NCBI GenBank assembly: GCA_041649575.1
Contig: JBAZMW010000002.1
Span: forward strand, 148,487-212,486
DNA length: 64,000 nucleotides
Reading direction: 5' to 3'
Origin: Patescibacteria group bacterium
Lineage (GTDB): Bacteria > Patescibacteriota > Patescibacteriia > 2-01-FULL-39-33
Shown here: positions 2,257 through 60,020 of the stretch, piece by piece
Layout of the letters: every line of letters starts with the position of its first letter
Position numbering within the stretch: the stretch's first letter is position 1
Notes under the pieces: model-generated
Seen by the model: only the letters and a program-made list of their open reading frames with translations
What the model was told of the DNA's origin: nothing
Database searches by the model: none
Translations under genes and position numbers: made by a program

Positions 2257-3804
2257 ATGGGAATTGAACTTAATTTTGATTTGGCTTCAGTTTGGGAAAG
2301 TTTCGTAATTTTTGCTTCCCAGGATCCAATTACCATTGGCATTCAACTGTTTCTTAAAGGTGGTTGGGTGATTTTTTTAATTGTAATACTGACTGTTTTT
2401 TACGATGCGTGGCTAGATGCCCGCCAAGGCCAGTATGCCGGCAAGTGGCAGCATGTTCTCTTGGCTATCGATATTCCCAAAAACAATGAACAAACACCTA
2501 AGGCGGTAGAAAATCTTTTTGTCGCTTTGGCCGGTACGCAATCCAGCGGCAATTTGATTGATCGTTATTGGCATGGCAAAATACAAGAAAGTTTTTCCTT
2601 CGAAATCGTCAGTCTCGAAGGCTATATCCAATTTTTGGTGCGCACTCCCGTTCATTTCAGGGATCTGGTGGAGGCCGCTGTTTATGCCCAGTATCCGGAA
2701 GCGGAAATCACCGAAGTCGAGGATTACGCCAAGGATTATGCCGGATTGCGTTTTCCCAATGAGCAATATAATTTGTGGGGCACCGAATTGGTTCTGACCA
2801 AGGATTACCCCTATCCCATCAAAACTTATATTGATTTTGAACACACTTTGACCGGCAATTTTTTGGATCCCATGGCGGGGTTATTGGAGATTTTGAGCCG
2901 CTTCGGTCCCGGCGAGCAGCTCTGGCTGCAGCTGGTGGTGACGCCGTGGAAGCCGGACTGGGGCGAAAAAGCCAAAAAAGCCATCAAGACTCTTAAAGGA
3001 GAAAATTATGCTCCGCCGACCACCATAGCCGACAGGATAGCCAAACCAATCGAGTGGTTGGGCACTCAGGCCTTAAATGTCGCTAATGAATTTGCCGGCG
3101 GCGGGGGAGAGGGAGCCAGCAAAAAAGAGGAAGATCAGTGGAAAATGTTCAAACTTACTCCTGGAGAAAGACTGGTTTTTGAAAAAATTCAGCATAAATT
3201 GTCCAAAATTCCTTTCCGGGTGAAATTTCGCATGATTTATTTGGCCAAAAAAGATGTTTTTGCCAAAGGCCGGGGCGTAGCGGCTGTGATTGGCAATATT
3301 CAGCAGTTTAATGTCTCCGACGCCAATGGCTTCAAACCCGGCCCGAAAACCAAGACGGCGGTCGATTATTTTCGCGTTAAGAAAAGATTGGCGGAAAGGC
3401 AAAAAAGGATTTTGCGTCGTTTTATTGGCCGCAGTAATTTTTATGGCGAACCGGTCAGTAATATGTTTTTGAGTACCGAGGAATTAGCCACCCTTTGGCA
3501 TTTCCCGGTGATGACCGTTAAGGCGCCCAGGCTGGAAATGATTGGCTCCAGGCGAGCCGTTCCGCCCACTCGTTTGCCCTACAAAAGTCGTGGTTTTACC
3601 GTTGAAAAAGAGAGAGTTAGAACTTTGGCGGAAAGAGACGGCAGGATTGAAGAAAAAATTGAAGGTTCACTGGAATCTCATCCCCGGTCGCCAAAGTTAC
3701 CAGCGGTAGCGCCGCTGGTTCGGCCGGCCAATTTAACGGACAAATCGACCGAACCGCCGCCGCGAAGAAATCCCGAACCGCCGGCCAACTTACCCACTGT
3801 TTAA
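2257..3804 (+). CDS. Membrane-anchored hypothetical protein, partner of the downstream ATPase; Pro/Arg-rich tail
   Basis: AGGAAGGTGA SD upstream and one N-terminal TM helix (GWVIFLIVILTVF). I recognise no motif. Stop is 12 nt before the next gene. Confidence 0.7.
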   Translation: MGIELNFDLASVWESFVIFASQDPITIGIQLFLKGGWVIFLIVILTVFYDAWLDARQGQYAGKWQHVLLAIDIPKNNEQTPKAVENLFVALAGTQSSGNLIDRYWHGKIQESFSFEIVSLEGYIQFLVRTPVHFRDLVEAAVYAQYPEAEITEVEDYAKDYAGLRFPNEQYNLWGTELVLTKDYPYPIKTYIDFEHTLTGNFLDPMAGLLEILSRFGPGEQLWLQLVVTPWKPDWGEKAKKAIKTLKGENYAPPTTIADRIAKPIEWLGTQALNVANEFAGGGGEGASKKEEDQWKMFKLTPGERLVFEKIQHKLSKIPFRVKFRMIYLAKKDVFAKGRGVAAVIGNIQQFNVSDANGFKPGPKTKTAVDYFRVKKRLAERQKRILRRFIGRSNFYGEPVSNMFLSTEELATLWHFPVMTVKAPRLEMIGSRRAVPPTRLPYKSRGFTVEKERVRTLAERDGRIEEKIEGSLESHPRSPKLPAVAPLVRPANLTDKSTEPPPRRNPEPPANLPTV

Positions 3805-3816
3805 ATTTTCTAAAAA

Positions 3817-5418
3817 ATGACAGAAGAAAGCGTCGAACAAAAAAAAGAAATAACCATTTTTGCCGAAACCAATTTCCGCAACCAGCGGCGCAGTTTTGGT
3901 ATTAAGCGCGATGATCGCCGGCGCCATATGTATATTATCGGTAAGACCGGCATGGGCAAAACCACGCTTTTGGAAAACATGATTATTTCCGATATCATCA
4001 ACGGCGAAGGTTGTTGCTATATTGATCCTCATGGCGATACCGCCGAAAAAATTCTAAATTATATTCCTTCCCACCGGGTTAACGACGTGGTCTATTTCAA
4101 CCCGTCCGATACGGATTTTCCCATCGCTTTCAATATTCTGGAGGCGGTTGACGAAAAAAGCAAGCACTTGATCGCTTCCGGCTTGGTCGGAGTTTTCAAG
4201 AAGCAATTCGCCGACAGCTGGGGCCCGCGTTTGGAATATATTTTAAGAAATGCTATTTTAGCTCTTTTGGATTATCCCGGTAGTACGCTTTTGGGTATCA
4301 TGAGGATTTTGGTTGACGCCGATTATCGCGACAAGGTGATTGAGAAAGTCACTGATCCGGTGGTCAGGTCTTTTTGGACCAATGAATACACCAAATGGAA
4401 CGACCGGGTTTTGCAAGAGGTCATTTCGCCGATTCAAAACAAAGTGGGCCAATTTTTATCTAATTTTTTAATTCGCAACATCGTCGGTCAGGTCAAATCG
4501 ACCATTGATATGCGCGAGATCATCGACAACAAAAAAATAATGATAATGAACTTGTCCAAGGGCCGTATCGGCGAAGACACCATGCAGCTTTTGGGATCGA
4601 TGATTGTCACTAAATTGTATTTAGCGGCCATGAGCCGCGTTGATGTTCCCGAGCAGCAGCGCCAAGATTTTTATCTTTACGTTGATGAGTTCCAAAATTT
4701 TGCTACCGACAGTTTTGCCGATATTTTGTCAGAAGCCAGAAAATATCGCCTGAACCTGGTTATTGCCCACCAGTACATCGAGCAACTGCCGGAGCTGGTG
4801 ACTGCCGCGGTTTTTGGCAACGTGGGCACGCTGATCAGTTTCCGGGTGGGCGCTTCCGATGCCGAGAGCTTGGTGCGGGAATTCACTCCTACCTTTACTG
4901 AAGAAGACCTGGTTAACCTGCCTTCTTTTAATGTCTATCTGAAATTAATGATTGACGGCATTTCTTCCGATCCGTTCTCCGCCACCACTTTACCACCACT
5001 TTTCGACGAAATGATCACCGACAGCAGTGAAAAGGTCATTAAAGTTTCTCGCGAACGTTATGCCCATGGTCGTAAGGTAATAGAAGACAAAATTAACCGC
5101 TGGAGTGGCATTGATCTAAGTGAAAAGTTGGCCGAAGCCACCGTGGGCAAGGGAGTGCCGGTTGTCATTTCCGCTTCCGGCGACGGCGCGAAGAAGAAGA
5201 AAAAAAAGAAGAAAAAGAGCCAGGCCACCGCTGGCAATAATTTTTCCGTGGCCTGCGCTTCCTGCGGCACGCCGGTCAAGCTGAACTTTCAGCCCGATGG
5301 CAAGCGCCCGATTTTTTGCGAGAATTGCCTTAATCAAATGGCCAAAGAAGAAGTCAAGTCCGACGAGGACGATGGCTACCAGAGTTTGGAAGATTTAAAA
5401 AAGATTCTGGGCCGATAA
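3817..5418 (+). CDS. TraD/TraG/VirD4-like (type IV coupling-protein-like) P-loop ATPase with a C-terminal zinc ribbon
   Basis: Walker A GKTGMGKT and Walker B-like YLYVDEFQNF. Lys9 run encoded at about 5190-5217. C-terminal CASCG..x17..FCENC zinc ribbon. Confidence 0.75.
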   Translation: MTEESVEQKKEITIFAETNFRNQRRSFGIKRDDRRRHMYIIGKTGMGKTTLLENMIISDIINGEGCCYIDPHGDTAEKILNYIPSHRVNDVVYFNPSDTDFPIAFNILEAVDEKSKHLIASGLVGVFKKQFADSWGPRLEYILRNAILALLDYPGSTLLGIMRILVDADYRDKVIEKVTDPVVRSFWTNEYTKWNDRVLQEVISPIQNKVGQFLSNFLIRNIVGQVKSTIDMREIIDNKKIMIMNLSKGRIGEDTMQLLGSMIVTKLYLAAMSRVDVPEQQRQDFYLYVDEFQNFATDSFADILSEARKYRLNLVIAHQYIEQLPELVTAAVFGNVGTLISFRVGASDAESLVREFTPTFTEEDLVNLPSFNVYLKLMIDGISSDPFSATTLPPLFDEMITDSSEKVIKVSRERYAHGRKVIEDKINRWSGIDLSEKLAEATVGKGVPVVISASGDGAKKKKKKKKKSQATAGNNFSVACASCGTPVKLNFQPDGKRPIFCENCLNQMAKEEVKSDEDDGYQSLEDLKKILGR

Positions 5419-5434
5419 AGCTATAAGCTAAGAG

Positions 5435-5460
5435 AGCGGCGCAGGAGCCGCTTTTATTTA
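5435..5460 (+). terminator. Intrinsic terminator
   Basis: AGCGGC / GCCGCT stem followed by TTTTATTT. Confidence 0.6.
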
Positions 5461-5486: not shown

Positions 5487-6035
5487 ATGTGGTCTGTTGT
5501 TTGGCAAGCTTTTTATTTGGCCTGGCCGGCTTATTTGGCCAATATGGCGCCGGTTATTTTCAAAAATTTTGGTTGGTTAAAATTTTTGGATCGGCCGATA
5601 GATGGCGGCAAAAAATTCGGCGGTGATTATCTTTTTGGACGGCACAAGACTTGGCGCGGGCTCCTGGCCGCTATCGTCGGCGGAGCTTTGGCCAGCTTTT
5701 TTCAGCTGATTCTTTATCGTTATCAGTTTTTCAGTTCTTTTTCTCTTTTTGACTACAACCAGCAGTGGCTGCTGGTCGGTTTACTTGGTGGTCTGGGCGC
5801 TATCCTGGGTGATTTGGCAAAAAGTTTTTTCAAACGTCGCCTGAAGATCGCCTCGGGCCGGTCTTGGCCGGTTTTTGACCAGTTGGATTTTATTTTTGGT
5901 TTTTTTGTTTTTGTTTATCTAACAGTCAGGCCGCCACTATTAGTGGTTGTCGTTGTTTTTCTAATCACCCTTATTCTTCATCCTTTGACTAATGTTTTTG
6001 CTTATCTTTTGAGATTTAAAAAAGTTTGGTGGTAA
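5487..6035 (+). CDS. carS: CDP-archaeol synthase (CarS, DUF46)-family membrane cytidylyltransferase homolog
   Basis: Motifs PIDGGKKF..G.HKTWRG, GDLAKSFFKRR, DQLDF and a C-terminal N..AY..R.KKVWW match the archaeal CarS pattern as I remember it. Confidence 0.7.
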   Translation: MWSVVWQAFYLAWPAYLANMAPVIFKNFGWLKFLDRPIDGGKKFGGDYLFGRHKTWRGLLAAIVGGALASFFQLILYRYQFFSSFSLFDYNQQWLLVGLLGGLGAILGDLAKSFFKRRLKIASGRSWPVFDQLDFIFGFFVFVYLTVRPPLLVVVVVFLITLILHPLTNVFAYLLRFKKVWW

Positions 6036-6040
6036 TCAAG

Positions 6041-6934
6041 ATGAAAAAAGCGTTAATTATTTTTAACCCCACCGCCGGCCTGGTTAGCAGACAGGATGTC
6101 CGCGGGCTGGTGGAAAAAAAATTGAAAGAGCTGGGCTTCGACTGGGAATTGTTTTTGCTTAACTCGGAGTTTGAAAAAAATATCTCCAGCTTTGATTTTT
6201 CCGGGCTCAAGTTGGTGGTGGCGGTGGGCGGTGACGGCACGATCAAGGTGGCGGCCCGCACCATTTTAAAAAACAAACTGACTTGCCCGTTGGCGGTCGT
6301 GCCTTTTGGTTCGGCCAATGTGATAGCTTCCACCCTGGCCATCCCCATTAGTATTAAAGAAGCTTTAAAGCTTTTAGACAAACCTAGTACCAAAAAAATC
6401 GACGTCGGCCTGATTAATGGCAACCGTTATTTTTTGGTCGGTTTTTCCTTGGGCTATATCTCCGACATCGTTATTAATACCGGCAAAGGACTGAAAAATC
6501 GTTTTGGTATGCTGGGCTATTTTTGGCGATTATTTTTTAATAAAATCAGAATCTCCCGGCTTAAATTCAAAATCCAAACCCGCAACAGGACTTTCTGGCT
6601 CAAGGGCAATAGCCTGATAATTTTTAACGCTTTCAATTATTTTGGTTTCCGGCCCAAAAGGCCTATCAGCATCAGCGACGGCATTTTTAATCTCTACGTC
6701 ATTACTAATAAGACTTTTTTTTCTTTGATCCGGGCTGGATTTTATATCCTGCTCTACCACCAGCCGCCGCGTTATGTTTTTACTTTGGATAATAATTTCT
6801 TTAGAATAACTCTGCGCCGTCAACACTTTCTCAAAACCGCTCAAATCGACGGCGATCATCTCAATTTGCCGCGGGAAATAATCATCGAGGTATTGCCCCG
6901 GGCGCTAGAAATGGTGGTAAAAAATAATGGCTAA
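6041..6934 (+). CDS. Diacylglycerol/lipid kinase family protein (DAGK catalytic domain, YegS-like)
   Basis: ALIIFNPTAG and VVAVGGDGTI motifs. ATG at 6041 lies 5 nt after the carS-like stop; the track's TTG at 6026 overlaps that gene. Confidence 0.8.
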   Translation: MKKALIIFNPTAGLVSRQDVRGLVEKKLKELGFDWELFLLNSEFEKNISSFDFSGLKLVVAVGGDGTIKVAARTILKNKLTCPLAVVPFGSANVIASTLAIPISIKEALKLLDKPSTKKIDVGLINGNRYFLVGFSLGYISDIVINTGKGLKNRFGMLGYFWRLFFNKIRISRLKFKIQTRNRTFWLKGNSLIIFNAFNYFGFRPKRPISISDGIFNLYVITNKTFFSLIRAGFYILLYHQPPRYVFTLDNNFFRITLRRQHFLKTAQIDGDHLNLPREIIIEVLPRALEMVVKNNG

Positions 6935-8045
6935 AGAAAAAGTGGTAGTAGCGATGAGTGGTGGCGTTGATTCCTCCGTCGCTGCGGCCTTACTCAAAAA
7001 ACAAGACTATGAAGTGGTTGGAGTTTTTATGCAGTTTTGGTTTCCCTTGTCTCGCCAGGGACAAGCGGAGGCGGGCTCGTTTACTAAAAATAAAACCATT
7101 CAGTCAAGTATAAATACCAAGGTTTACGAAGAAAACCGCTGTTGTAGTTTGAGGTCTTGGAACGAAGCGCAACAAGTGGCGCGAATTCTGGATTTTCCTG
7201 TTCGCAAGGTAAATTTCGGACGGCAATTCAAAAAACTGATTGTTGATGAATTTTTGCGTGAGTACAGACTGGGTCGCACTCCCAACCCTTGTGTCGCTTG
7301 CAATAAATTTATCAAATTTGATTTGTTGTTGAAATATGCGAGAACTGTTTTTGGTGCGGATTATTTGGCTACCGGGCACTATGCTAGCTTGGTGTCATTC
7401 AAATTAGGACGGCCCAAAGACAGACAAAAAGACCAGACTTATTTTTTGTATAATTTAAAACAAGCACAATTAAAGCACCTGCTTTTTCCGCTTGGTAATT
7501 ATACTAAAAATGAGGTCAGAAAATTGGCTAAGAAGTTTAAGCTGCCGGTTTTTGATAAGCCGGACAGCCAGGAAATCTGTTTTGTGGGGCAGTCACATTA
7601 TGATTTTTTGAAGAAATATTTGCGCTTACAGCCGGGTAAAATCATTAGCAACCAAGGAAAAATATTGAGAACGCATCAGGGTCTGCCCTTGTATACCCTG
7701 GGCCAAAGGAGCGGCTTGGGGCTTTCGGGCGGACCGTGGTATGTGGCTGAAATGGATTATAAAAAAAATCGGCTGGTTGTCACCAAAAAAGAAAAGCAGT
7801 CAGCAATCTTTCGAAAAGAATTAGTCGCCCAAAAAGTTAATTGGCTTTTTGGCGAACCAAAATTTCCTCTCATATGCCAGGCGCAAATTCGTTATCATGC
7901 CCGGTCGGCCAGTTGTCTGGTGAAAAAGCAGGACCAAAAGATTGTTGTTGAATTCAGGCAAAAGCAGCGGGCGATAATGCCCGGCCAATCTGTGGTTTTT
8001 TATCAAGGTGATGAGCTGTTGGGCGGGGGAGTGATAGTGGGTTAG
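6927..8045 (+). CDS. mnmA: tRNA 2-thiouridine(34) synthase MnmA
   Basis: PP-loop VVVAMSGGVDSSVAA and PNPCVACNKFIKF. The loop between FW and CCS is unusually long. Confidence 0.9.
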   Translation: MAKEKVVVAMSGGVDSSVAAALLKKQDYEVVGVFMQFWFPLSRQGQAEAGSFTKNKTIQSSINTKVYEENRCCSLRSWNEAQQVARILDFPVRKVNFGRQFKKLIVDEFLREYRLGRTPNPCVACNKFIKFDLLLKYARTVFGADYLATGHYASLVSFKLGRPKDRQKDQTYFLYNLKQAQLKHLLFPLGNYTKNEVRKLAKKFKLPVFDKPDSQEICFVGQSHYDFLKKYLRLQPGKIISNQGKILRTHQGLPLYTLGQRSGLGLSGGPWYVAEMDYKKNRLVVTKKEKQSAIFRKELVAQKVNWLFGEPKFPLICQAQIRYHARSASCLVKKQDQKIVVEFRQKQRAIMPGQSVVFYQGDELLGGGVIVG

Positions 8046-8153
8046 TACAGAAGGAGTCAGGTTAATAATAAAAAAAGAAGACAAAGATCGGGCAGAAGAG
8101 GTTTTAGAAATTGGTAATAAGTAAATTATTAATAATAAACAAAGATTTAACGT

Positions 8154-8182
8154 TTGACATAATTTTGAAAGCATAATAAGAT
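8154..8182 (+). promoter_or_regulatory. Promoter: TTGACA, 17-nt spacer, TAAGAT(AAT)
   Basis: TTGACA at 8154-8159 and TAAGAT at 8177-8182. Same -10 string as the promoter at 9196. Confidence 0.55.
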
Positions 8183-8284
8183 AATATATCTTTCTCCAGA
8201 GAGAATGATTCATAGTCCACTTGTGGTGGAAGATGATTGCACAAAAGACAAGGGAACAGGAACCCAAGAAGGAGGCTGTACGTC

Positions 8285-9106
8285 ATGATTAAAAGAACCG
8301 TCGTGGGGCGACTTTTCCGTGATTCTGGCGCATTCGGCCAGTTGACGCCGCCGCCCGGTCTGGAGGGAACCATTGGTGATCCCGATTGGGATTTCTTCTC
8401 GAAGCTGCCGCCGCGTTTTGATTTTCTGGAACTCTGCGATCGGGTCGGCCACGCTTTTGAGATGTCCGAGTCACCCATCTCGCCCTCCGACTGGGAGGAC
8501 CAGTTCGAAAGTCAGAAGGAGCGGCTGCTCGCTCTGTCCGGCTGCTCTGATGGCCATGGCATCGTGCTTTTGCCCGGCCTATTGCCAGTGGCTCCCGGTG
8601 ATTGTATCAGGAAGAGCCTTTTCAATGTCTACATCCCGGCGGTAGAACGCGGCTACGGGGCGATCTATCCCAAGAGGGCTTTTGAGGATTGGTGTGATGG
8701 TCGGGCGGACAGTGTCGCGGCTTTTCCCGGAGTGGGCCACGAGCATCTAATCCACCTCGCCAGTAAAGGCTTGGTCGCCGTCTTCGTCTACATCGCCCAT
8801 TGTATGCGGGCGTGGCCCGTCTCGACCCAGCGCCGACTGCCACGGAAGTTGTTCAAATCGAATTTCTCCTTGGCCGGCGGCTGTGACACGCTTTCCGTCC
8901 TGTCTCTGCACCCTGATATTCTCGCCGCTGGTTTCTGTAGCCCGACGATCGAGCTCAGTGCCTTGCAGACAGATTCGCCGCGCCTCTCGATCTGCGTGGT
9001 GCCAGAAGACAAACGCCTCAGACTCGACATCTGGGGTAATCCCGACGATTTCGCGCCTGAAGCTTCAGGAGGGCTTTCGTTCTGGAAGGAGCAACCTGTC
9101 TTCTAG
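8285..9106 (+). CDS. GC-rich orphan protein, 273 aa, no recognised domain
   Basis: ATG at 8285 has AAGGAGG 9 nt upstream. The long open frame is in GC-rich DNA where other frames are also open, so the frame choice rests on the SD and on length. Confidence 0.6.
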   Translation: MIKRTVVGRLFRDSGAFGQLTPPPGLEGTIGDPDWDFFSKLPPRFDFLELCDRVGHAFEMSESPISPSDWEDQFESQKERLLALSGCSDGHGIVLLPGLLPVAPGDCIRKSLFNVYIPAVERGYGAIYPKRAFEDWCDGRADSVAAFPGVGHEHLIHLASKGLVAVFVYIAHCMRAWPVSTQRRLPRKLFKSNFSLAGGCDTLSVLSLHPDILAAGFCSPTIELSALQTDSPRLSICVVPEDKRLRLDIWGNPDDFAPEASGGLSFWKEQPVF

Positions 9107-9195
9107 CTGGCGCGCCTTAGCCGGCTGCCGGAGTTCTCTAATTGGGGCTAGTGATCATACCAATCACCGGCCTCTGTTTTTTGTTTTAAGCGTAG

Positions 9196-9224
9196 TTGAC
9201 ATTGATAATGAAAACCCTTAAGAT
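9196..9224 (+). promoter_or_regulatory. Promoter: TTGACA, 17-nt spacer, TAAGAT(AAT)
   Basis: TTGACA at 9196-9201 and TAAGAT at 9219-9224. Confidence 0.55.
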
Positions 9225-9277
9225 AATCTTTCGATCTTTCAAGTTAAACTAGTAAGGCAACCATGGAGGGAGCTGCC

Positions 9278-10015
9278 ATGTTTCTGGTATTATTTTCCAT
9301 TCTGGTCTACCCAGTGGCCTTTGTCACCTTCGTCGTTTGCGCCTCAATCTACCTGGCGTTTGTCTTTGTCTTCAAGTCGCTGGGCTGGGAGCTGCAGTAC
9401 CTGGGGCCGTTGGTTCGGTTTCTGGCTCGCGTGATTCTCTTGAGTTGTGGCCAATGGCTCAAGGTTGGGGGCAACTGGCCCTCTCCGACTATCGGGCCTT
9501 GCATCTTTCTCTTCAACCACAGCTCTATCCTGGATGCTCTGGTGGCTGGCGCGGTGCTAAAAGGACGGTTCACTGGCGTGGCTGCCCAGGAGTATTTCTT
9601 TTGGCCGCTGTGGGGAACCATTATGCGCTGGCACAATATCATTCCCATCAAGCGCAAGTGCCACGACGAGGCCATAGAGAGCATGCGGCGGGCGGAAGAG
9701 GCGATAAAAAACGGCTGGTCAATAGGCGGCTTTCCCGAGGGCACCAGAAGCAAGACAGGAGAGTTGCAGCCGTTCAAAAAGGGCCTTTTCTATGTGGCCA
9801 AGGCCACGGGCGCGCCGATCGTGGTGATAGCCATCAAGGGGGCGTACCGTGCCAAGAGTCGCGTCGGTTGGTGTGTTCGGCCGGGAGTGATAACGGCCAC
9901 TATCGGCAAACCCTGGACCCTGTGGTCTAACGGAAAGCAACGGTATGCGGCCTTGTCGGTGGAAGAGTTAAGGCAACTGGCCGAAGGGCTCATGGCAACC
10001 ATGCTCGAAAGTTGA
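9278..10015 (+). CDS. plsC: 1-acyl-sn-glycerol-3-phosphate acyltransferase-like (PlsC/LPLAT family), GC-rich
   Basis: NHSSILD (H-x4-D) and FPEGTRS motifs. ATG at 9278 is preceded by GGAGGGAG; an alternative in-frame ATG is at 9263. Confidence 0.8.
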   Translation: MFLVLFSILVYPVAFVTFVVCASIYLAFVFVFKSLGWELQYLGPLVRFLARVILLSCGQWLKVGGNWPSPTIGPCIFLFNHSSILDALVAGAVLKGRFTGVAAQEYFFWPLWGTIMRWHNIIPIKRKCHDEAIESMRRAEEAIKNGWSIGGFPEGTRSKTGELQPFKKGLFYVAKATGAPIVVIAIKGAYRAKSRVGWCVRPGVITATIGKPWTLWSNGKQRYAALSVEELRQLAEGLMATMLES

Positions 10016-10045
10016 GCGTCAGGCGGTTCCCGCTAGCGTAAGTAT

Positions 10046-10075
10046 CCGGCAACAGCGATGTTTGCCGGTTTTTCT
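10046..10075 (+). terminator. Intrinsic terminator
   Basis: CCGGCAA / TTGCCGG stem followed by TTTTTCTTT. Confidence 0.7.
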
Positions 10076-12357: not shown

Positions 12358-12714
12358 ATGAGTCAAAAGACTGGCATACTATTGCTGCTGTTGCGGCCGA
12401 AAGACGGAGCGGCCGTCTTCTTGGACTGGACCCAGAACGCCCTCTTCATGCTGGAGAGCGCGAGTGCCACAGGCGTTTCGCCGTTGGCCGAGAGGGAAGA
12501 TCTGGCCAAGTGTATGAAGGGTTACGAGCTGTGTCCCGCGCTTGGCTACGGCCTATGCGCCAGGTGCCCTATGTCAGTCACCGGCGGTGCTCTCTGTAAT
12601 TTCTGGGCTTCCCAGGGATTCGCCCGCGTGCTCGACGCGCGCACAGAAGAGGAGGCGACCTTTGCCGATCTCGATGCCATGCGCGCCGCGCTCACCGCTT
12701 CCATTACCGGCTGA
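12358..12714 (+). CDS. GC-rich orphan protein, 118 aa
   Basis: AAGGAG SD 9 nt upstream of the ATG. Contains CARCP and other Cys residues. No recognised domain. Confidence 0.55.
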   Translation: MSQKTGILLLLLRPKDGAAVFLDWTQNALFMLESASATGVSPLAEREDLAKCMKGYELCPALGYGLCARCPMSVTGGALCNFWASQGFARVLDARTEEEATFADLDAMRAALTASITG

Positions 12715-12729
12715 AAGGAGAACACGGAC

Positions 12730-13107
12730 ATGCCAACGGTACAAGTGGCCGCGATAAATCTGCCGGCTGGCGCCTTCCTTTTCTTCTATCCGGAACACGC
12801 CACCCCCCAGTACCTTCTGTACAAGAATATCTGGCTGGGACAGACGATGTTCAGGCAGAAGCTAAACGAAGACGAACTTCAGGCTCTCCTCGCCGCCGGT
12901 CGAAATGGGTGGGAGGAAGTGGGCGAGGTGACTCGACGAGAGTTGCAGGCCGCGGATCTCTCTGGACTGGTTCGCAATCTCAAGACCAGGTGCGTCTGGC
13001 CCGAGAATGCGACCGCGTCAATCGCTGTCAGTCCTGACTGCAGCGGACGATGCTCGGAGTGTCGCGGGTGCTATAGCGACATGGAGCCAGTCACAGTAGA
13101 GCGATAG
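12730..13107 (+). CDS. GC-rich orphan protein, 125 aa, with a C-terminal Cys cluster
   Basis: AAGGAG SD 9 nt upstream. C-terminal CSGRCSECRGC (C-x3-C-x2-C-x2-C). Confidence 0.55.
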   Translation: MPTVQVAAINLPAGAFLFFYPEHATPQYLLYKNIWLGQTMFRQKLNEDELQALLAAGRNGWEEVGEVTRRELQAADLSGLVRNLKTRCVWPENATASIAVSPDCSGRCSECRGCYSDMEPVTVER

Positions 13108-39984: not shown

Positions 39985-40026
39985 ATACCAGCCTTTTTTG
40001 CAAAAGTAAATCAGTCTTGTTATAAT
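39975..40026. promoter_or_regulatory. Divergent promoter pair sharing one palindromic -35 hexamer TTGCAA
   Basis: TTGCAA at 39998-40003. Plus strand: 17 nt to TATAAT (40021-40026). Minus strand: 17 nt to TAGAAT (reverse complement of 39975-39980). Confidence 0.5.
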
Positions 40027-40030
40027 AAAA

Positions 40031-40240
40031 GTGGTTCATTTCCTCGAGACCCGAACTGGTCATTTGGGTCTCACCGCTCCGGTGGGGAAGCGAAACCAGC
40101 GCCTTCGCTTCCCCTCTGGCTTAACCAAAGCACCTTGGTAGCACTTCCCGGGTCTACTGAAAGCCGCATCCAGGCAAGCATTAGACCCGTTCCCGCTGTG
40201 GCGGCCGATGGCATCAGTCATCAGCCGTCCTTTTTGTTTA
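40031..40240 (+). ncRNA. Candidate GC-rich structured RNA R1 (~210 nt, class unknown)
   Basis: Has its own promoter and terminator (40200-40240). Perfect stems at 40046-52/40066-72, 40084-94/40104-14 and 40150-56/40182-88. I found no SD-preceded ORF. Confidence 0.45.
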
Positions 40241-40289
40241 TCCACAGTTAAATATTTATAACCAAAGAAATCTTTGCTATAATAAAATC

Positions 40290-40622
40290 ACATTGGACAT
40301 GGGGCTTGTCAAATGGCCCTGCAACCAGTCCGAACGGAGAACGAGCCATGAGAACAAAGACAACGAAGCGAGCAGCAGTGGGCGTGATGGTCGATGGCAC
40401 CGGCGGAACAGCGTACTTGGCGACGTCCTGACCTAACGAGAACGGTCGGACTGGGCGTCAAAGAAGTTCTCCGAGACGCTTGACTCAACCCAAGCGTCTC
40501 GCCGCACCTTAACTCTCCTCGGAGAGTTGTGACTATAGGTTTTCACGCTTTGACAAAGCGTGGACATCCCCCTAAGGTGAGCAGTCGGTTGCTGACAGGT
40601 AGCCGACTCTCTTTTTGTTTTT
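40290..40622 (+). ncRNA. Candidate GC-rich structured RNA R2 (~330 nt, class unknown)
   Basis: Promoter TTTATA, 17-nt spacer, TATAAT (40255-40283). 9-bp long-range helix 40325-33/40446-54. Hairpins at 40473-40500, 40511-28 and 40544-62. Terminator at 40583-40622. Confidence 0.45.
40348..40431 (+). CDS. Possible 27-aa mini-ORF inside R2
   Basis: MRTKTTKRAAVGVMVDGTGGTAYLATS with GGAG 8 nt upstream. It is enclosed by the long-range helix. Coding status is uncertain. Confidence 0.2.
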   Translation: MRTKTTKRAAVGVMVDGTGGTAYLATS

Positions 40623-40767
40623 AAAAAATTTAGTTATCCACAGGTACTATTTATTTCTTTAAAAAATAGTTATATAATGAAAGTGCGGAAGGTATTTACG
40701 ATAGCGTACAACCGAAGCAGGCCATCGGCCAAACGATCGGCCAAACGAAAGAAAGGTGGGACGGAAG

Positions 40768-41259
40768 ATGAGAAAGTTCGTGTTTTGTACGGTAGTACTG
40801 GCGTTCGCGTTTGTGATGATTCCGGCGACGAATACTCCGGCATACGCGACGCAACTCGATCAAGGCAAGGCAGTGGCGACGGCTCCGACGACGATGGGGA
40901 CGACGCAGCAGGACGTGCAGACGGCGATGAAGAGCAACCTGGTCCTCGACGGCACCGGGCAGAAAGTCGCTGAAGTGATGAAGGCGCCGACTCTTGACTC
41001 CGGACGAGTGATTGCGCAGACGGCGACGACGAAGACGGCACGCGAAGAGCAGACGAAGATCACGGCGAAGAGTGACACGGTTGTAACGGCGAAGATCGAA
41101 GCGCAAGGCATGGGCGAGCAGATGGCAGCGGCTGGCGAAGATGACGCTGGCACGATCATCGTGGCGACGAAGAGTGACACCTATGCGACGAGAATCGAGG
41201 GCCGTATCGCTCACGACGCGGACGCGACCTTCAATGCGAACGTTCTGATCATCGGCTAA
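40768..41259 (+). CDS. GC-rich secreted Thr/Ala-rich protein, 163 aa
   Basis: AAGGTGGG SD. Signal peptide MRKFVFCTVVLAFAFVMIPATNTPAYA. Internal repeat CGAAGAGTGACAC at about 41069 and 41168. Confidence 0.6.
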   Translation: MRKFVFCTVVLAFAFVMIPATNTPAYATQLDQGKAVATAPTTMGTTQQDVQTAMKSNLVLDGTGQKVAEVMKAPTLDSGRVIAQTATTKTAREEQTKITAKSDTVVTAKIEAQGMGEQMAAAGEDDAGTIIVATKSDTYATRIEGRIAHDADATFNANVLIIG

Positions 41260-41349
41260 CCACGCGGGCAGCGCCGAAAGTCAGAACGAGTAGTACCTTG
41301 GATACACAACCGATACCGGCCAACAGTCGGATCGGCCACCTCCAGAGTT

Positions 41350-41388
41350 GGGTCAGCTGGCAACGGCGACCCTCTCTTTTTTTGTTTT
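41350..41388 (+). terminator. Intrinsic terminator
   Basis: GGGTC.GC / GC.GACCC stem followed by TCTCTTTTTTTGTTTT. Confidence 0.65.
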
Positions 41389-41396
41389 GAAAAAAT

Positions 41397-41425
41397 TTGC
41401 CAAAATTTTATAAATTTTTTATACT
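41397..41425 (+). promoter_or_regulatory. Promoter: TTGCCA, 17-nt spacer, TATACT
   Basis: TTGCCA at 41397-41402 and TATACT at 41420-41425. Confidence 0.5.
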
Positions 41426-41431
41426 ATAAGC

Positions 41432-41756
41432 AAGCGGTTCCTGCTGTGGGAACCGTGCACATTGGGTCAACGGGTCAACCGGAGGGTACAAGCAATATGA
41501 AAAAGGAAATGAGAGCGCAGGGTTTGGTCGTGGCGAAATGGAAGTAGGCTAGACCGTAGCAAGGCAACTTAGCGTTGTTGGGCGGAGGCCCCAACTAACA
41601 GTGGGCCTCCGCTGAATCTTTCCCTCGCTTGAGCGGGGTGCTGGTATATCCTTCTCTGAAGGGGTTCCCCCGTTGGGAAGTGTTGCCCATTCAACGCCTC
41701 CTGACCGCACAGGCTGCAATTTGTCGCAAGACGAAGGGCAGCCTGAATTATTTTTT
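41432..41756 (+). ncRNA. Candidate GC-rich structured RNA R3 (~320 nt) with a possible 16-aa mini-ORF at 41497-41547
   Basis: Hairpins at 41435-55 and 41582-41612 (10 bp). Terminator CAGGCTGC / GCAGCCTG followed by T6. Mini-ORF MKKEMRAQGLVVAKWK has GGAGGG 10 nt upstream. Confidence 0.4.
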
Positions 41757-52964: not shown

Positions 52965-54116
52965 TTAGTTTTGATAAGGCACGAATTGGCCGTTTTTGAT
53001 TTGTTGCATCATAGAAGTCATGTGGGAGTCGCCATTACTGTCGATAGTGATGGGTCCACTGACGCCATCATAATTTTTTACCCCATACAGGTAGTTTTTT
53101 ACGCCATCAGGATTATAGCCGCTACTCTTTATGGCGTTTAGTAACAGATTAGTGCCATCATAGGAATTGGCCACGGCGCTCATAATCGGCGGATCTTGAT
53201 TGTAGGCGGAGATGTATTTTGTTTTGAGGTCTTTGACTTTTTGATTTTGATCATCTAGGGCGGAGGTGATAAAAATTGCTCCTTCGGCGGCGCTGTCGCC
53301 GGCTGTCACCACTTCTTTGACACCAAAATTGTCAGAGCCAATAATTTGAGCATTAATTCCCAGCTCTCTGGCTTGTTTGGCGATCAATCCCCCTTCGCTG
53401 CCATAACTTATAATCACTAATGATGTCGGATTTTTTTCTTTTATTTTTGTCAGGGCGGTTCGGAAGTCAGTCGCTTCCGGCAAGTAGGTTTCGGCATCTA
53501 AAATTTTTCCGCCGCTAGCTTCATAGGTGCTTTTAAAATTATCGAAAAAACCGACGCCGTAGTCATTGCTGGCATAAATGACGGCCACCTCTGGAGTGTT
53601 TAACTGGTGGTAAAGAAAATCGGCCAGATTAGCGCCTTGCACCGCGTCAGAAATGCAAGTCCGAAAAATATAATTGCCAGCTTGGGAGATTTTGGCAGCT
53701 GAAGCCAGCGTGGTCAGTAGGATAACCTTACTTTGTTCAGCAATGGGAGCTGTGGCCAAGACCGACCCGGAACAGCCAACCATGGTGGCTTTGACTTTAT
53801 CAACACTGATTAATTTATTAAAAGCAGTGACGGCCTCGGTTTTGTCGCAAGTCTTATTATCCTCAAAAATCAATTGGATTTGTTGGCCATTTATTCCGCC
53901 GCGATCGTTCCATTCTTTGACGGCGATTTCTATACCACCCTTCATTGATCCACCCCAATTAACTAAGTCACCAGTCAGCGGCGCAATCACCCCGATTTTT
54001 ATAGGCTCGGTATCTTGCGAATTAGCTTTGTTGGTGAGTGCCAAGGCATAGCCAATGATGGCGATAATCACCACCAGAGCAATTATCAGCCAGATAATTT
54101 TTGTTTTCTTTGACAT
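52965..54116 (-). CDS. LIV-type (type I periplasmic) substrate-binding protein, paralog 1
   Basis: N-terminal TM anchor, then IKIGVIAPLTGD.....G, typical of Leu/Ile/Val-binding proteins. Confidence 0.8.
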   Translation of the reverse strand: MSKKTKIIWLIIALVVIIAIIGYALALTNKANSQDTEPIKIGVIAPLTGDLVNWGGSMKGGIEIAVKEWNDRGGINGQQIQLIFEDNKTCDKTEAVTAFNKLISVDKVKATMVGCSGSVLATAPIAEQSKVILLTTLASAAKISQAGNYIFRTCISDAVQGANLADFLYHQLNTPEVAVIYASNDYGVGFFDNFKSTYEASGGKILDAETYLPEATDFRTALTKIKEKNPTSLVIISYGSEGGLIAKQARELGINAQIIGSDNFGVKEVVTAGDSAAEGAIFITSALDDQNQKVKDLKTKYISAYNQDPPIMSAVANSYDGTNLLLNAIKSSGYNPDGVKNYLYGVKNYDGVSGPITIDSNGDSHMTSMMQQIKNGQFVPYQN

Positions 54117-54215
54117 GGTTCTTGGGATATTTTATTTGTCTTGAATTCAAGAATAATGAAATATGGGACTTATCGTCAATTTATATTACAGAAATTTAGT
54201 GATATTTTAGCTAAT

Positions 54216-54244
54216 TTGACAAATATTTAGCTATATTATATAAT
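54216..54244 (+). promoter_or_regulatory. Promoter TTGACA, 17-nt spacer, TATAAT, with phased TTTAGCTA repeats
   Basis: TTGACA at 54216-54221 and TATAAT at 54239-54244. TTTAGCTA at 54206 and 54226, and TTTAGTGA at 54196. Confidence 0.55.
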
Positions 54245-54269
54245 ATCTGTAAATATTTTTTACAACAAT

Positions 54270-55001
54270 ATGCTGGACAAAATTATTGATTATTTCAATT
54301 TAGAAGAAAAAGAAGCCAAAGTCTATCTGGCTGCTCTGGAATTGGGCAATTCTAAGGTCAGTGAAATAGCCAAAAAAGCCGGTTTAAATCGCATTACGGC
54401 TTATGAAATTTTGAAACGATTAAGACAAAAGGGGTTGGCCGTGAGCTTAACTAGAAATAACGTTTTGACTTTTCGGGTGATTGATCCTGAAAAAGTTATT
54501 AAGAAAATGGAAAGCAAGTTATCCTTGTCTCGGGAGCTTTTGCCGGCGCTGGTGCTACTAAAAAATAACAGCGGCAAAAAGCCGAAGATCGAGTACTTTG
54601 ACGGTCGTGAAGGATTAAGGGCTTTGTGCAACGATTCCTTAAACTGTCAAGAAAAAATAATTTATGATTTGGCGGAACCCACCAATCTGTTGAAAACTAT
54701 CGGCGAGGATTTTTTTAATTCTTTTGTCAGACAAAGAGTCAAAAAAGGAATAAAGGTCAAGTTGTTGCTGCCTAAAAACAAAGAGAACAAAAAATATCTC
54801 GGGGTAGTAAAAAGAGATTTAAGAGAATTAAGATTTATTGATGATGATTTGTATCCCAATGAGTTTTATATTTATGACAATAAAGTCGCCATACTCTCCT
54901 TCTCCGGCAAGATGGGAGTATTAATTGAAGACGAGGAAATCGCCAAATCAATGAAGTCCATCTGGAGATTCTTATGGAATCACTCTGACAAAAATTTTTA
55001 A
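54270..55001 (+). CDS. TrmB-family transcriptional regulator
   Basis: N-terminal winged HTH: FNLEEKEAKVYLAALELGNSKVSEIAKKAGLNRITAYEILKRL. Confidence 0.8.
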   Translation: MLDKIIDYFNLEEKEAKVYLAALELGNSKVSEIAKKAGLNRITAYEILKRLRQKGLAVSLTRNNVLTFRVIDPEKVIKKMESKLSLSRELLPALVLLKNNSGKKPKIEYFDGREGLRALCNDSLNCQEKIIYDLAEPTNLLKTIGEDFFNSFVRQRVKKGIKVKLLLPKNKENKKYLGVVKRDLRELRFIDDDLYPNEFYIYDNKVAILSFSGKMGVLIEDEEIAKSMKSIWRFLWNHSDKNF

Positions 55002-55052
55002 CTTAAAACACCCGCCAATGAGGCGGGTGTTTTAAGAATATGTGGTTTTTAA

Positions 55053-56102
55053 CTAATTTACCTTCTCCAGATACATCGGAATAACAATATCATTATTTGT
55101 AATATCTTTGGCTACTCCAGTCACGCCACTGACTTCTTTTTTGTTGGTCAGACAGCTTTCAATACTATCTTTGGGACAAGTGGCCAAAAGGTTGACAATA
55201 TCAAAACCAAAGGCGGCCACGAAGTTGGGTTCTTTGCCATATTTGGCTTTGTATCTGGTTTTGAACTGCTCGCTATTACCGGGAATAGAAAAAGCAAATT
55301 GATTGGTGTAGAAAGTCATTTTGGGAGCTTTGGCTTGCGTTTCCGGATCGGATTGGACATTAGAGACTTCAACTATCGGGATATTAAACTTTAATTCTTC
55401 TATTTTTTTCAAAATGCCCAGTGATTCGCTTGGTGGTGTTGGGACGAATAACAGAGCTTCCGGTCCAGCGTCTTTGGCCTTACTAACGATGGTGGAAAAG
55501 TCAGTCGTGTTGGGAACATATGATTCCATGAAGACTATCTTTTTGCCGGATTCATCACAGAGTTGTTTGATTTTGTCAGCCACCGATTGGGCATACTCGT
55601 CTTTTCTGTAGATGACTGCTATTTTCTTGACGTTTTTGAGCGGTGAAATGTCTGATTCAAATGATGGCGTGGCAAAATGACTGGCGTCGGTATAATATCT
55701 GAAAGCATAATCATTAGTAATATTGTTAGCCGCGCTTTGAGTGATAACCATGGGAATTTTGTCCTCTTTGGCGAGTGAGGCCAGCGGCACGCTGACAATA
55801 CTAAGAGCTGTCACAAAAACATCCGGCTTTTGGAGTTTTAGTTTTTGATAGGCGGTCAAACCATCGGCGGCAGCGCCTTTGCTATCCTCATAGGTGACGG
55901 CAAGATTGGGGTGGTCTTCCAGCGCTAGATCCATGCCGTTCTTGACACTTTCGCCCCAGATGGCCGATGGGCCGCTTAGAGCCAAAATGGCTCCGATTTG
56001 GGTTTTATCATCACTGGTAGCAGCTTTATTGCCCAAGCCACAGCCGGCTAACACTACGCTTGCCATTAAGGCAACGACAATAATCAAAAATTTTGTTTTC
56101 AT
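55053..56102 (-). CDS. LIV-type substrate-binding lipoprotein, paralog 2
   Basis: Lipobox VLAGCG, then IGAILALSGP. Confidence 0.8.
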   Translation of the reverse strand: MKTKFLIIVVALMASVVLAGCGLGNKAATSDDKTQIGAILALSGPSAIWGESVKNGMDLALEDHPNLAVTYEDSKGAAADGLTAYQKLKLQKPDVFVTALSIVSVPLASLAKEDKIPMVITQSAANNITNDYAFRYYTDASHFATPSFESDISPLKNVKKIAVIYRKDEYAQSVADKIKQLCDESGKKIVFMESYVPNTTDFSTIVSKAKDAGPEALLFVPTPPSESLGILKKIEELKFNIPIVEVSNVQSDPETQAKAPKMTFYTNQFAFSIPGNSEQFKTRYKAKYGKEPNFVAAFGFDIVNLLATCPKDSIESCLTNKKEVSGVTGVAKDITNNDIVIPMYLEKVN

Positions 56103-56126
56103 ACGACGTTTTATTATTGTTTAGTT

Positions 56127-57254
56127 TTAATAAGGTATTATTTCACTATTTTTAATCTGATAAAGAATAAAATGTGCATTTTTTCTGTCATTGTTCTTAT
56201 CGAAGCTAATTTCGCCGCCAGCTCCAGAGTAATTAATATTTTTTAGAGACTCTACTGCCTGACTCATGTCCATATTATTTTTTCCAGCTGCTTCGGCCAA
56301 GATATAGATGTCATCGTACATGCCGATACAGGCGTTTTGCTGGGGACAATCGGCGCCGTATTTTTCTTTGTAAGTGTCTAATAAATTTTTTACTGAAACG
56401 ATATTTTCTATGGCAAAATCAGTACTAATAGCCCCATCTAAATAATTTTTATATTTTGAATTTAAATCGGCCGAATGCATAATTGCCTCATTTACTAACA
56501 AAGTTTTAGGTCGAAAATTAATTTCTTTTGCCTCCTTCAAAACTTTATCACCAGAAGTTGGGCTTTGAACGCTCATTAATAAAACATCGGGGTTAGCGTT
56601 TTTGAGTTTTAAAAGTGGGGTGCGGACATCGGTGGCATCCGTTGTAAAGCCCTCGCTTACAATTTTTACTTCCTTATTTTCAAGATTTTTTTCCAGCATC
56701 AATTTCATGCCTTTAGCGTAATCCGTTTCTTCATAGATAATCGCAATTTTTCTTAAATTATTATTAACAATATATTCTCCAAATAAGCGAGCCCCGTCAG
56801 CATCAGAAGCATAATTTCTAAAAACCGAGGGAGAAACCCCGGTCACCTTAACCGAGCTCACAACTGTGGCAATTAAGATCTGATCTGACTTTAATAAAGG
56901 CGCGATTCCTAATACTGTTCCACTACAGGCCACGGAAGAAAAAAGCTTTAGGCCGTTTACATTTGAAAGTTGTTGAAAGGCTGAAATGGCCGCTTGAGGG
57001 GCGCATTGATGGTCTTGATAATTAATTTCTATTTTGTGTCCATTTATTCCGCCTTTGGCATTTATTTCCTCTACAGCGATTTCAGCCGCTTTTTGCGCTG
57101 AGTCGCCATAAATAGCTGCTCCTCCGGTCAAAGGTAATAAAGCCCCGATTTTGATAGTTTCTTTATTGTTTTTGCTAATATTGCTCAGGCTGCAACCGGC
57201 CGTGGCCACGACAATTAACGCCAAAATGATGATGAATAGGGATTTTCTTTTCAT
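56127..57254 (-). CDS. LIV-type substrate-binding lipoprotein, paralog 3
   Basis: Lipobox ATAGCS, then IKIGALLPLTGG. Confidence 0.8.
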   Translation of the reverse strand: MKRKSLFIIILALIVVATAGCSLSNISKNNKETIKIGALLPLTGGAAIYGDSAQKAAEIAVEEINAKGGINGHKIEINYQDHQCAPQAAISAFQQLSNVNGLKLFSSVACSGTVLGIAPLLKSDQILIATVVSSVKVTGVSPSVFRNYASDADGARLFGEYIVNNNLRKIAIIYEETDYAKGMKLMLEKNLENKEVKIVSEGFTTDATDVRTPLLKLKNANPDVLLMSVQSPTSGDKVLKEAKEINFRPKTLLVNEAIMHSADLNSKYKNYLDGAISTDFAIENIVSVKNLLDTYKEKYGADCPQQNACIGMYDDIYILAEAAGKNNMDMSQAVESLKNINYSGAGGEISFDKNNDRKNAHFILYQIKNSEIIPY

Positions 57255-57277
57255 GATTTTACTATATTATTATTATA

Positions 57278-58015: not shown

Positions 58016-58020
58016 TATTA

Positions 58021-59127: not shown

Positions 59128-59144
59128 AAAATTTTGTATTTTAG

Positions 59145-60017: not shown

Positions 60018-60020
60018 AGA

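Follow-up and report, generated by a model that had tools for sequence, protein, structure and literature searches.

The described enzymes closest to the gene pair examined here are the archaeal CarS enzymes of Archaeoglobus fulgidus (AfCarS) and Aeropyrum pernix (ApCarS; PDB 5GUF), the CdsA enzymes of Escherichia coli and Thermotoga maritima (PDB 4Q2E), and the lipid kinases DgkB (Staphylococcus aureus; PDB 2QV7), YegS, and BmrU. The pair lies on a 64,000-nucleotide stretch of contig JBAZMW010000002.1 (assembly GCA_041649575.1) of a Patescibacteria group bacterium, belonging to the Candidate Phyla Radiation (CPR); this whole stretch is hereafter called the window. It consists of a gene for a CarS-family CTP:lipid-phosphate cytidylyltransferase (positions 5487..6035, + strand) and a gene for a soluble lipid kinase of the DgkB/YegS/BmrU family with a DAGK_cat domain (6041..6934, + strand). 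In contrast to the archaeal enzymes, the CarS-type protein of the window is found in a bacterium and is coupled to a bacterial DgkB/YegS-type kinase, its relatives are coupled to PgpA and a PgsA-like gene, and no context of geranylgeranylglyceryl phosphate synthase (GGGPS) or digeranylgeranylglyceryl phosphate synthase (DGGGPS) was seen. It differs from CdsA, which has approximately 260-285 aa and nine transmembrane (TM) helices, in its length of 182 aa, its five TM helices, and the lack of the K-D...HGG..DR.D signature. The kinase shares the DAGK_cat domain, the GGDGT nucleotide loop, and the C-terminal DG(D/E) with DgkB, YegS, and BmrU, but it is distant from them (E values of 1e-17 to 1e-10) and scores below the family cut-offs. 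In addition, its gene and that of a cytidylyltransferase are translationally close, which no paper found describes.

A scheme based on the same idea was presented for Saccharibacteria (Starr et al. 2018, PMC6031116), in which phosphatidate or phospholipids are taken up and the headgroups are rebuilt via a CDP-intermediate and a CDP-alcohol phosphatidyltransferase (CAPT). The activating enzyme in that scheme is annotated as a canonical phosphatidate cytidylyltransferase, whereas a CarS-type enzyme with a kinase in the same operon is found here. The nearest CarS clusters outside CPR are those of DPANN archaea (Woese- and Nanoarchaeota; 38-50% identity), 23 of whose 38 loci hold a CAPT no farther than 3 kb from CarS. 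Unlike the pair in the window, they have no DAGK_cat neighbor; genes for Psd, for a methyltransferase, for tandem CAPTs, and for a PHP phosphoesterase are found instead, with PF01553 genes in 5 loci. On balance, we favor the view that the CarS-kinase pair constitutes a two-step lipid re-activation module, in which the CarS-type enzyme takes the pathway position of CdsA.

The CarS-family protein and its partner kinase

The 182-aa protein (NCBI MFA5029479.1), which has five predicted TM helices, had been likened to CDP-archaeol synthase in a preliminary description based on sequence motifs, and profile searches bore out this family. PF01864 (CarS-like) matched residues 2-182 over profile positions 2-175 of 175 with an E value of 4.7e-35 and 121.6 bits, a full-length match above the curated Pfam cut-off of 22 bits. 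The NCBIfam equivalog NF003114 (CDP-2,3-bis-(O-geranylgeranyl)-sn-glycerol synthase) gave 156 bits against a cut-off of 148. On the other hand, the CdsA equivalog NF008635 gave 20 bits against a cut-off of 385, and PF01148 (CTP_transf_1, the CdsA family) matched only the C-terminal part (29.1 bits, profile positions 169-259 of 264). The comparison of PF01864 with CdsA proposed at the outset was therefore decided on the CarS side, and no Pfam or NCBIfam profile assigned the protein to another family. As for the motif strings listed in the preliminary description, their content is present, but the spacing given by dots was only schematic; the real sequence reads PIDGGKKFGGDYLFGRHKTWRG and NVFAYLLRFKKVWW.

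The sole sequence match in the PDB was CarS of A. pernix (5GUF, E value of 7e-16), and the five long helices predicted for the protein agree with the five-TM fold of ApCarS. None of the features of the CdsA family, namely a full-length match, approximately nine TM helices, and the C-terminal signature, was observed in the protein; the signature S-x-[LIVMF]-K-R-x4-K-D-...-H-G-G-x2-D-R-x-D is absent. The window protein and 80 relatives were aligned with 16 named canonical archaeal CarS. Among the polar columns, 13 show invariance or a conservation of at least 88% across the 16 canonical proteins, and all of these were retained (N19, D39, K54, T55, D109, K116, R117, R118, D131, Q132, H165, N169, and K178), and, judged from their conservation, these residues may line a CTP/metal cavity. 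In contrast, Tyr48 takes the place of R51 of ApCarS, a position with Arg in 94% of the canonical set, and the clade of the window protein has conserved residues of its own, most of them bulkier (M20, K112, W127, F130, P166, L167, and W181; of these, M20, W127, F130, P166, and W181 are the bulky clade-specific residues relative to ApCarS). The second Asp of 'DQLD' is variable even within archaeal CarS. By every sequence and structure criterion tested, the window protein is a member of the CarS family and stands outside the CdsA family in the narrow sense. GenBank/PGAP already labels MFA5029479.1 as 'CDP-2,3-bis-(O-geranylgeranyl)-sn-glycerol synthase [Patescibacteria group bacterium]'; this name was assigned automatically and is no discovery of the present analysis. 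A resemblance of the CPR clade to CdsA beyond that of canonical CarS was also considered and was rejected (median bit scores against E. coli CdsA of 15.3 and 12.1, respectively; p = 0.19).

The window contains bacterial genes for SecF, a sigma-70-related factor, RpoA, a cluster of ribosomal proteins, many aminoacyl-tRNA synthetases, fmt/def, and FtsX, and the contig also shows SecDF and FtsEX alongside sigma-70-related, ribosomal, and aminoacyl-tRNA synthetase genes. Since the window is bacterial and the exact protein is deposited in GenBank from a Patescibacteria metagenome-assembled genome (MAG), the CarS gene is not a contamination. The contig corresponds to k141_2894300 of ENA ERZ27247363 (235,073 bp), on which the window covers roughly 22.4-86.4 kb in reverse orientation.

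The partner kinase (297 aa, NCBI MFA5029480.1) matched PF00781 (DAGK_cat) with 74.6 bits, and its best PDB matches were 4WER, 3S40, BmrU (3T5P), DgkB (2QV7), and YegS, with E values of 8e-17 to 7e-10. The residues GGDGT (63-67), P88/G90/N93, D121, D213-G214, and D270-G271 were invariant in 22 kinase orthologues. The list of open reading frames (ORFs) places the start of the kinase at TTG 6026, but ATG 6041 fits the N-terminus of the family and the public gene call. With this start, the stop codon of CarS (TAA, 6033-6035) is followed by 5 nt (TCAAG) and the ATG of the kinase, exactly the distance first reported. A terminator-like GC hairpin with a T-run was found at 5432..5455 (+ strand; 9-bp stem with 5 GC pairs and the tail ATTTATCTTT; a consensus match only), between the gene for a TrwB/VirD4-like ATPase (stop at 5418) and the start of CarS, which suggests that CarS opens a new transcription unit.

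Distribution of the pair and its operon contexts

An exhaustive HMMER search yielded 1,871 clusters at 50% identity (E value of 1e-3 or lower). Among GTDB species representatives, 281 relatives were found, and 80 loci were kept for analysis. They fell into a CPR set (Buchanan-, Falkow-, Parcu-, Peregrini-, and possibly Saccharibacteria), a DPANN set (Woese-, Nano-, and Pacearchaeota), and a third, small set (Binatia, Acidobacteriota, and Spirochaetes). Records titled 'uncultured Gammaproteobacteria' were counted as CPR on the basis of the CPR synteny block at an E value of 1e-150 or lower, or of RpoD plus PgpA, and records titled 'Methanosarcinales' were counted as DPANN because they group with loci carrying an archaeal Rpr2 gene. 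Many MAG titles of one third-party annotation series among L001-L075 seem to be placeholders, at odds with the gene content, and are unsuitable as a guide to taxonomy.

The CarS protein of the window showed 50-64% identity with a core CPR group, 44-46% with a second CPR group, 38-50% with DPANN, and 30-43% with canonical archaeal CarS. In a neighbor-joining tree, the CarS of CPR, DPANN, and Binatia formed a clade within archaeal CarS, with CPR and DPANN interleaved; bootstrap values were weak (0.6 for this clade and 0.36 for the clade of the window protein). The nearest relatives of the window CarS outside CPR thus appear to be DPANN archaeal CarS, given this weak support in the tree. The nested position and the interleaving make an archaeal origin with exchange of CarS between CPR and DPANN likely, but they do not establish it. 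CarS homologues also occur in non-CPR bacteria (L030, L047, L067, and L071), namely an Acidobacteriota with a 3.57-Mb contig, Binatia, and a Spirochaete. The CarS of the Binatia locus L047 carries an N-terminal extension of approximately 125 aa without a Pfam match, and a divergently oriented CAPT lies beside CarS in L030.

To count gene contexts, ORFs were called in the 80 loci and searched with the window proteins, and genes within 3 kb of CarS were recorded. In 21 loci, every one of them from CPR, a DAGK gene follows CarS directly on its strand. In the 38 CPR loci (35 with at least 1 kb of downstream sequence), there were 21 with DAGK, 11 with CAPT, 26 with either of the two, and 3 with PF01553; the corresponding numbers for the 38 loci of DPANN and other archaea were 0, 23, 23, and 5. 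A lack of conservation of the pair, which would have counted against the salvage idea from the start, was not observed, as the order CarS-DAGK recurs in 21 of the 38 CPR loci and against two synteny backgrounds. In the core group, which includes named Buchananbacteria and Patescibacteria MAGs, the pair is embedded in the block sigma-DUF8128-TrwB/VirD4-like ATPase-CarS-DAGK-MnmA-(small ORF)-PlsC-AlaRS. The DUF8128 and ATPase genes are located immediately 5' of CarS in at least 17 CPR loci and are apparently fused into one protein of approximately 840 aa in L007, L009, and L013.

In the second CPR group (L026, L027, L034, L055, L064, and L073), the pair is kept with a gap of 1 nt between CarS and the kinase, and the flanks are entirely different. 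Three of these loci (L026, L034, and L073) contain the extended operon GT4-CarS-DAGK-PgpA-CAPT, where GT4 is a glycosyltransferase and the genes abut or overlap by approximately 4-14 nt. The PgpA of this operon matched PF04608 with 110 bits. Its CAPT belongs to PF01066, and the best NCBIfam model was bacterial pgsA (81-92 bits, below the cut-off of 109), well ahead of archaetidylinositol-phosphate synthase. The order CarS-DAGK-CAPT was found in L018, L027, and L064, and the order CAPT-CarS in L029, L031, and L072. The GT4 that heads the operon was considered as a glycolipid synthase, but it received no specific NCBIfam assignment, and lipid-glycosyltransferase models were weak among many others.

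The pairwise distances of CarS and DAGK were correlated (r = 0.87), indicating that the two genes move together. Proteins in which CarS is naturally fused to CAPT, to a PAP2 phosphatase, or to DUF212 (a divergent PAP2) were also found (P0383, P0347, and P0375). On the archaeal side, many Woese- and Nanoarchaeota loci place CarS in the headgroup cluster already described. PlsC-type genes (PF01553) stand directly beside CarS in the DPANN loci L039, L042, L059, L079, and L080, and the acyltransferase gene of L042 overlaps the start of CarS by 8 nt; such linkage of an acyltransferase to CarS is unexpected in archaea.

A candidate route for lipid re-activation and its alternatives

In the proposed route, the CPR bacterium would be unable to make its own lipids. 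With ATP, the DgkB/YegS-family kinase would phosphorylate a lipid alcohol of the membrane. Diacylglycerol (DAG) derived from a host cell is the most likely substrate, possibly along with monoacylglycerol, which would then be completed by the nearby PlsC-type acyltransferase. The five-helix CarS-type enzyme would transfer CMP from CTP onto phosphatidate to give CDP-diacylglycerol, and CAPTs would convert the latter to phosphatidylglycerol phosphate (PGP) and other classes of headgroups. The operon of the second group would thereby lead from DAG through phosphatidate and CDP-diacylglycerol to PGP (by the PgsA-like CAPT) and phosphatidylglycerol (PG; by PgpA), and in the lineage of the window the PlsC-type gene would provide an extra entry from lysolipids. 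The operon of the second group reads as the whole route from DAG to PG; the CarS-type enzyme is the sole candidate there for the CdsA step.

The family and fold of the CarS protein, its intact polar residues, the tight coupling to the kinase gene, and the recurrence of both the pair and the extended operon in relatives are observed features of the module. With the pair in 21 of the 38 CPR loci, two synteny backgrounds, and an operon from DAG to PG, the salvage reading is well supported by context, though short of proof. The logic sketched in the preliminary description, in which a lipid alcohol is converted by the kinase to a phosphatidate-like lipid and then activated with CTP by CarS, accordingly gained strong contextual support from the CPR operons. 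Community lipidomics has assigned fatty-acid-based lipids and abundant lysolipids to CPR bacteria, which have no complete synthesis pathway (PMC7242380), and for a Saccharibacterium with a canonical CdsA a scavenge-and-interconvert scheme via CDP-diacylglycerol was proposed (PMC6031116); both fit the proposed route. The bacterial type of the kinase, the PlsC neighbors, and this lipidomics argue for acyl lipids but are not decisive. The order of the reactions given above, acyl substrates, and a replacement of CdsA by the CarS-type enzyme, not a supplementation, are inferred.

Several points weigh against this reading. AfCarS strongly prefers digeranylgeranylglyceryl phosphate (DGGGP) over phosphatidate and fails to complement an E. 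coli cdsA mutant, according to the summary of Jain 2014 in a review (PMC9385802). CDP-archaeol is reportedly accepted by the bacterial enzymes PgsA and PgpA (Caforio 2018, cited in PMC7852524), so the operon argues for the type of reaction and not for the hydrophobic tails; a PgpA/PgsA context does not separate acyl from isoprenoid lipids. By bit score, the CPR clade of CarS is no closer to CdsA than canonical CarS is (p = 0.19). The window kinase remains under the TIGR00147 cut-off (86.6 versus 118.65 bits); its orthologue in L026 clears this cut-off with 122.4 bits. Kinases of this family also differ in the lipids on which they act. The adjacent kinase is missing in 14 of the 35 evaluable CPR loci. 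Genome searches covered the window and its 10-kb flanks, approximately 83 kb of the 235-kb contig; no CAPT or PgpA was found within these 83 kb, so that a downstream consumer of the CDP-lipid was unseen there, and the absence of cdsA may not extend to the whole genome.

The search for cdsA in the window used Pfam on almost all non-overlapping ORFs of at least 110 aa (the S13-S9 ribosomal block was assigned by synteny), a scan of all six frames for the CdsA signature, an unfiltered search with the CarS hidden Markov model (HMM), and a phmmer detector with an E. coli CdsA query that found a true CdsA in the control locus L095. The earlier remark that no cdsA is visible in the window held in all of these searches, and the signature, HMM, and detector searches returned only the CarS ORF. 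No CdsA was detected in the 80 CarS loci, the window, and the flanks either, a total of 1.28 Mb that represents a few percent of each genome. A scan of metagenome contigs for displacement of CdsA, made with a CPR CAPT alignment and a generic pattern, gave 80 loci of mixed organisms at 25-46% identity, among which only one CdsA neighbor and one CarS neighbor were found. In bacteria, rpsB-tsf is often followed by pyrH-frr-uppS-cdsA; the rpsB-tsf neighborhood here contains none of pyrH, frr, uppS, and cdsA.

It is conceivable, though in our judgment unlikely, that a canonical CdsA is encoded elsewhere and that the pair is an auxiliary recycling branch, acting on DAG from turnover of glycolipids or of a lipoteichoic-acid type, or on an unusual class of lipids. 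The inspected DNA amounts to 83 kb, a putative CdsA is encoded in some CPR (PMC6031116), and a GT4 glycosyltransferase heads the operon of the second group. Moreover, CarS homologues are carried by non-CPR bacteria with large genomes (the Acidobacteriota of L030 with its 3.57-Mb contig, and Binatia), which probably hold a canonical CdsA as well. Against such a branch, redundant cytidylyltransferases are unexpected in a strongly reduced genome, the complete operon from DAG to PG requires no further activating enzyme, and the rpsB-tsf neighborhood is devoid of the genes listed above.

We regard it as rather improbable that the protein is a genuine CDP-archaeol synthase, which would activate archaeol-type diether lipids or cores acquired from archaeal neighbors or hosts and re-phosphorylated by the kinase. 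The NF003114 equivalog cut-off is cleared (156 versus 148), the nearest non-CPR relatives are DPANN CarS (38-50%) with CPR and DPANN interleaved in the tree, and genome-reduced archaea keep CarS and headgroup enzymes without isoprenoid synthesis (PMC12411855). The preference of a characterized CarS for DGGGP, as the review PMC9385802 reports it, also agrees with this alternative, and the operon is compatible with it through the acceptance of CDP-archaeol by PgsA and PgpA, as cited in PMC7852524. However, the partner kinase is a member of a bacterial family (DgkB/YegS/BmrU) that stands next to CarS in none of the 38 DPANN loci, the syntenic block holds PlsC-type acyltransferases, and the lipids assigned to CPR are fatty-acid lipids and lysolipids (PMC7242380). 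A CDP-archaeol synthase is defined biologically by its substrate, DGGGP or unsaturated archaetidic acid (an isoprenoid diether on glycerol-1-phosphate), and by its genomic neighbors. In addition, the company of archaeal ether-lipid genes that goes with CarS (glycerol-1-phosphate dehydrogenase, GGGPS, and UbiA-type DGGGPS) was not seen in the 83 kb; none of these families was among the Pfam matches there.

Two further explanations have little in their favor. Dolichol and phytol kinases belong to the CTP_transf_1 superfamily, to which the partial PF01148 match ties the CarS-like protein; that the protein is a CTP-dependent lipid kinase of this kind and not a cytidylyltransferase is nevertheless highly improbable, because it has the full-length CarS profile and fold and keeps the polar residues conserved in CarS, a dedicated ATP-dependent kinase is encoded next door, and the CAPT fusions and neighbors imply a CDP-lipid product. 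An adjacency of CarS and kinase that is merely inherited synteny, as for mnmA and alaS, which are also syntenic without a lipid role, can be set aside as very remote, since the pair persists amid different flanks with a 1-nt gap, the genes after it abut or overlap, and PgpA and a PgsA-like gene accompany it in the second group.

Taken together, the re-activation module is conserved and probably functional, with an archaeal-type cytidylyltransferase that appears to have been recruited into a bacterial PG and salvage pathway of CPR. A broader proposition can be put forward only tentatively and is doubtful at present: the CPR/DPANN branch of CarS may consist of phosphatidate or lipid-indifferent cytidylyltransferases that displaced CdsA in whole lineages of ultrasmall episymbionts and were shared with DPANN by transfer.

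Surrounding genes and significance for CPR membranes

Downstream of the kinase, mnmA (tRNA 2-thiouridylase; 6927..8045, + strand; PF03054/PF20259/PF20258) shares 8 nt with the end of the kinase gene, so that co-transcription of the two is probable; the gene is syntenic in 14 loci, yet it is outside the lipid function. The next gene (WC518_01875; 8285..9106, + strand) encodes a hypothetical protein of 273 aa in a GC-rich segment (GC content of 59% at 8501-9000). No Pfam, NCBIfam, or PDB match was obtained for this protein, and no relative was present in the 80 loci, in which relatives of the locus hold an ORF of 131-140 aa in the same slot.

The PlsC-like lysophospholipid acyltransferase gene (9263..10015, + strand; 250 aa, NCBI MFA5029483.1) starts 2.3 kb past the kinase stop, as was noted early on. 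Its product matched PF01553 with 99.2 bits and contains the HX4D motif (NHSSILD) and FPEGTRS, and it reached 84.9 bits with TIGR00530, under the cut-off of 102.95. Its identity with the syntenic PlsC of L006/L008/L020 amounts to just 33%, compared with 55-71% for its neighbors. The syntenic PlsC thus seems to have been replaced by a xenologue, with conservation of the position but not of the gene. A GC-rich islet extends over 8100-10050 (59% at 8501-9000 and 58% at 9501-10000, versus 41-47% around it) and, judging by composition and synteny, looks like a foreign replacement of the segment with the small ORF and PlsC.

Upstream of the pair, 2257-5418 encodes the DUF8128 protein (515 aa) followed by the TrwB/VirD4-like coupling ATPase, in which nine consecutive lysines and, at the C-terminus, a treble-clef zinc finger are found. 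Two neighboring ORFs of 118 and 125 aa without a family match (12358-13107) lie between alaS and infA in a second GC-rich patch (59.6% at 12501-13000); this insert is missing in relatives. A 1.6-kb region at 39985-41628 (approximately 51% GC) has overlapping ORFs on both strands, with no Pfam match for any ORF and no Rfam match even at an E value of up to 0.1. The region 52965-60887 (- strand) encodes an ABC transporter of the branched-chain-amino-acid type (two permeases, two ATPases), together with four paralogous Peripla_BP_6 binding proteins and, between them on the opposite strand, a TrmB-family regulator. Four binding proteins are many for so small a genome.

A literature search that did not extend to most subscription journals gave no paper on CarS in CPR or on an operon of the type CarS-DAGK(-PgpA-PgsA). 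For the question of how CPR bacteria form membranes without making lipids, the module offers a concrete and testable route of few genes, which would start with a neutral lipid or lysolipid taken up by scavenging and pass through phosphatidate and a CDP-lipid to phosphatidylglycerol. It would place an archaeal-type enzyme at the single step where the archaeal and bacterial phospholipid pathways converge, and would add a lipid gene to those shared by CPR and DPANN. Since CarS and CdsA reportedly discriminate between archaeal and bacterial substrates, a natural CarS at work in a bacterial PgpA/PgsA operon would be a ready system for studying specificity. The PGAP name carried by hundreds of Patescibacteria proteins may give the wrong substrate. 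If the CarS of CPR and DPANN does act on acyl lipids, the 'lipid divide' would not run through the CTP-activation step, and symbionts that scavenge lipids, bacterial and archaeal alike, would use a common minimal kit of kinase/acyltransferase, CarS, and CAPT.

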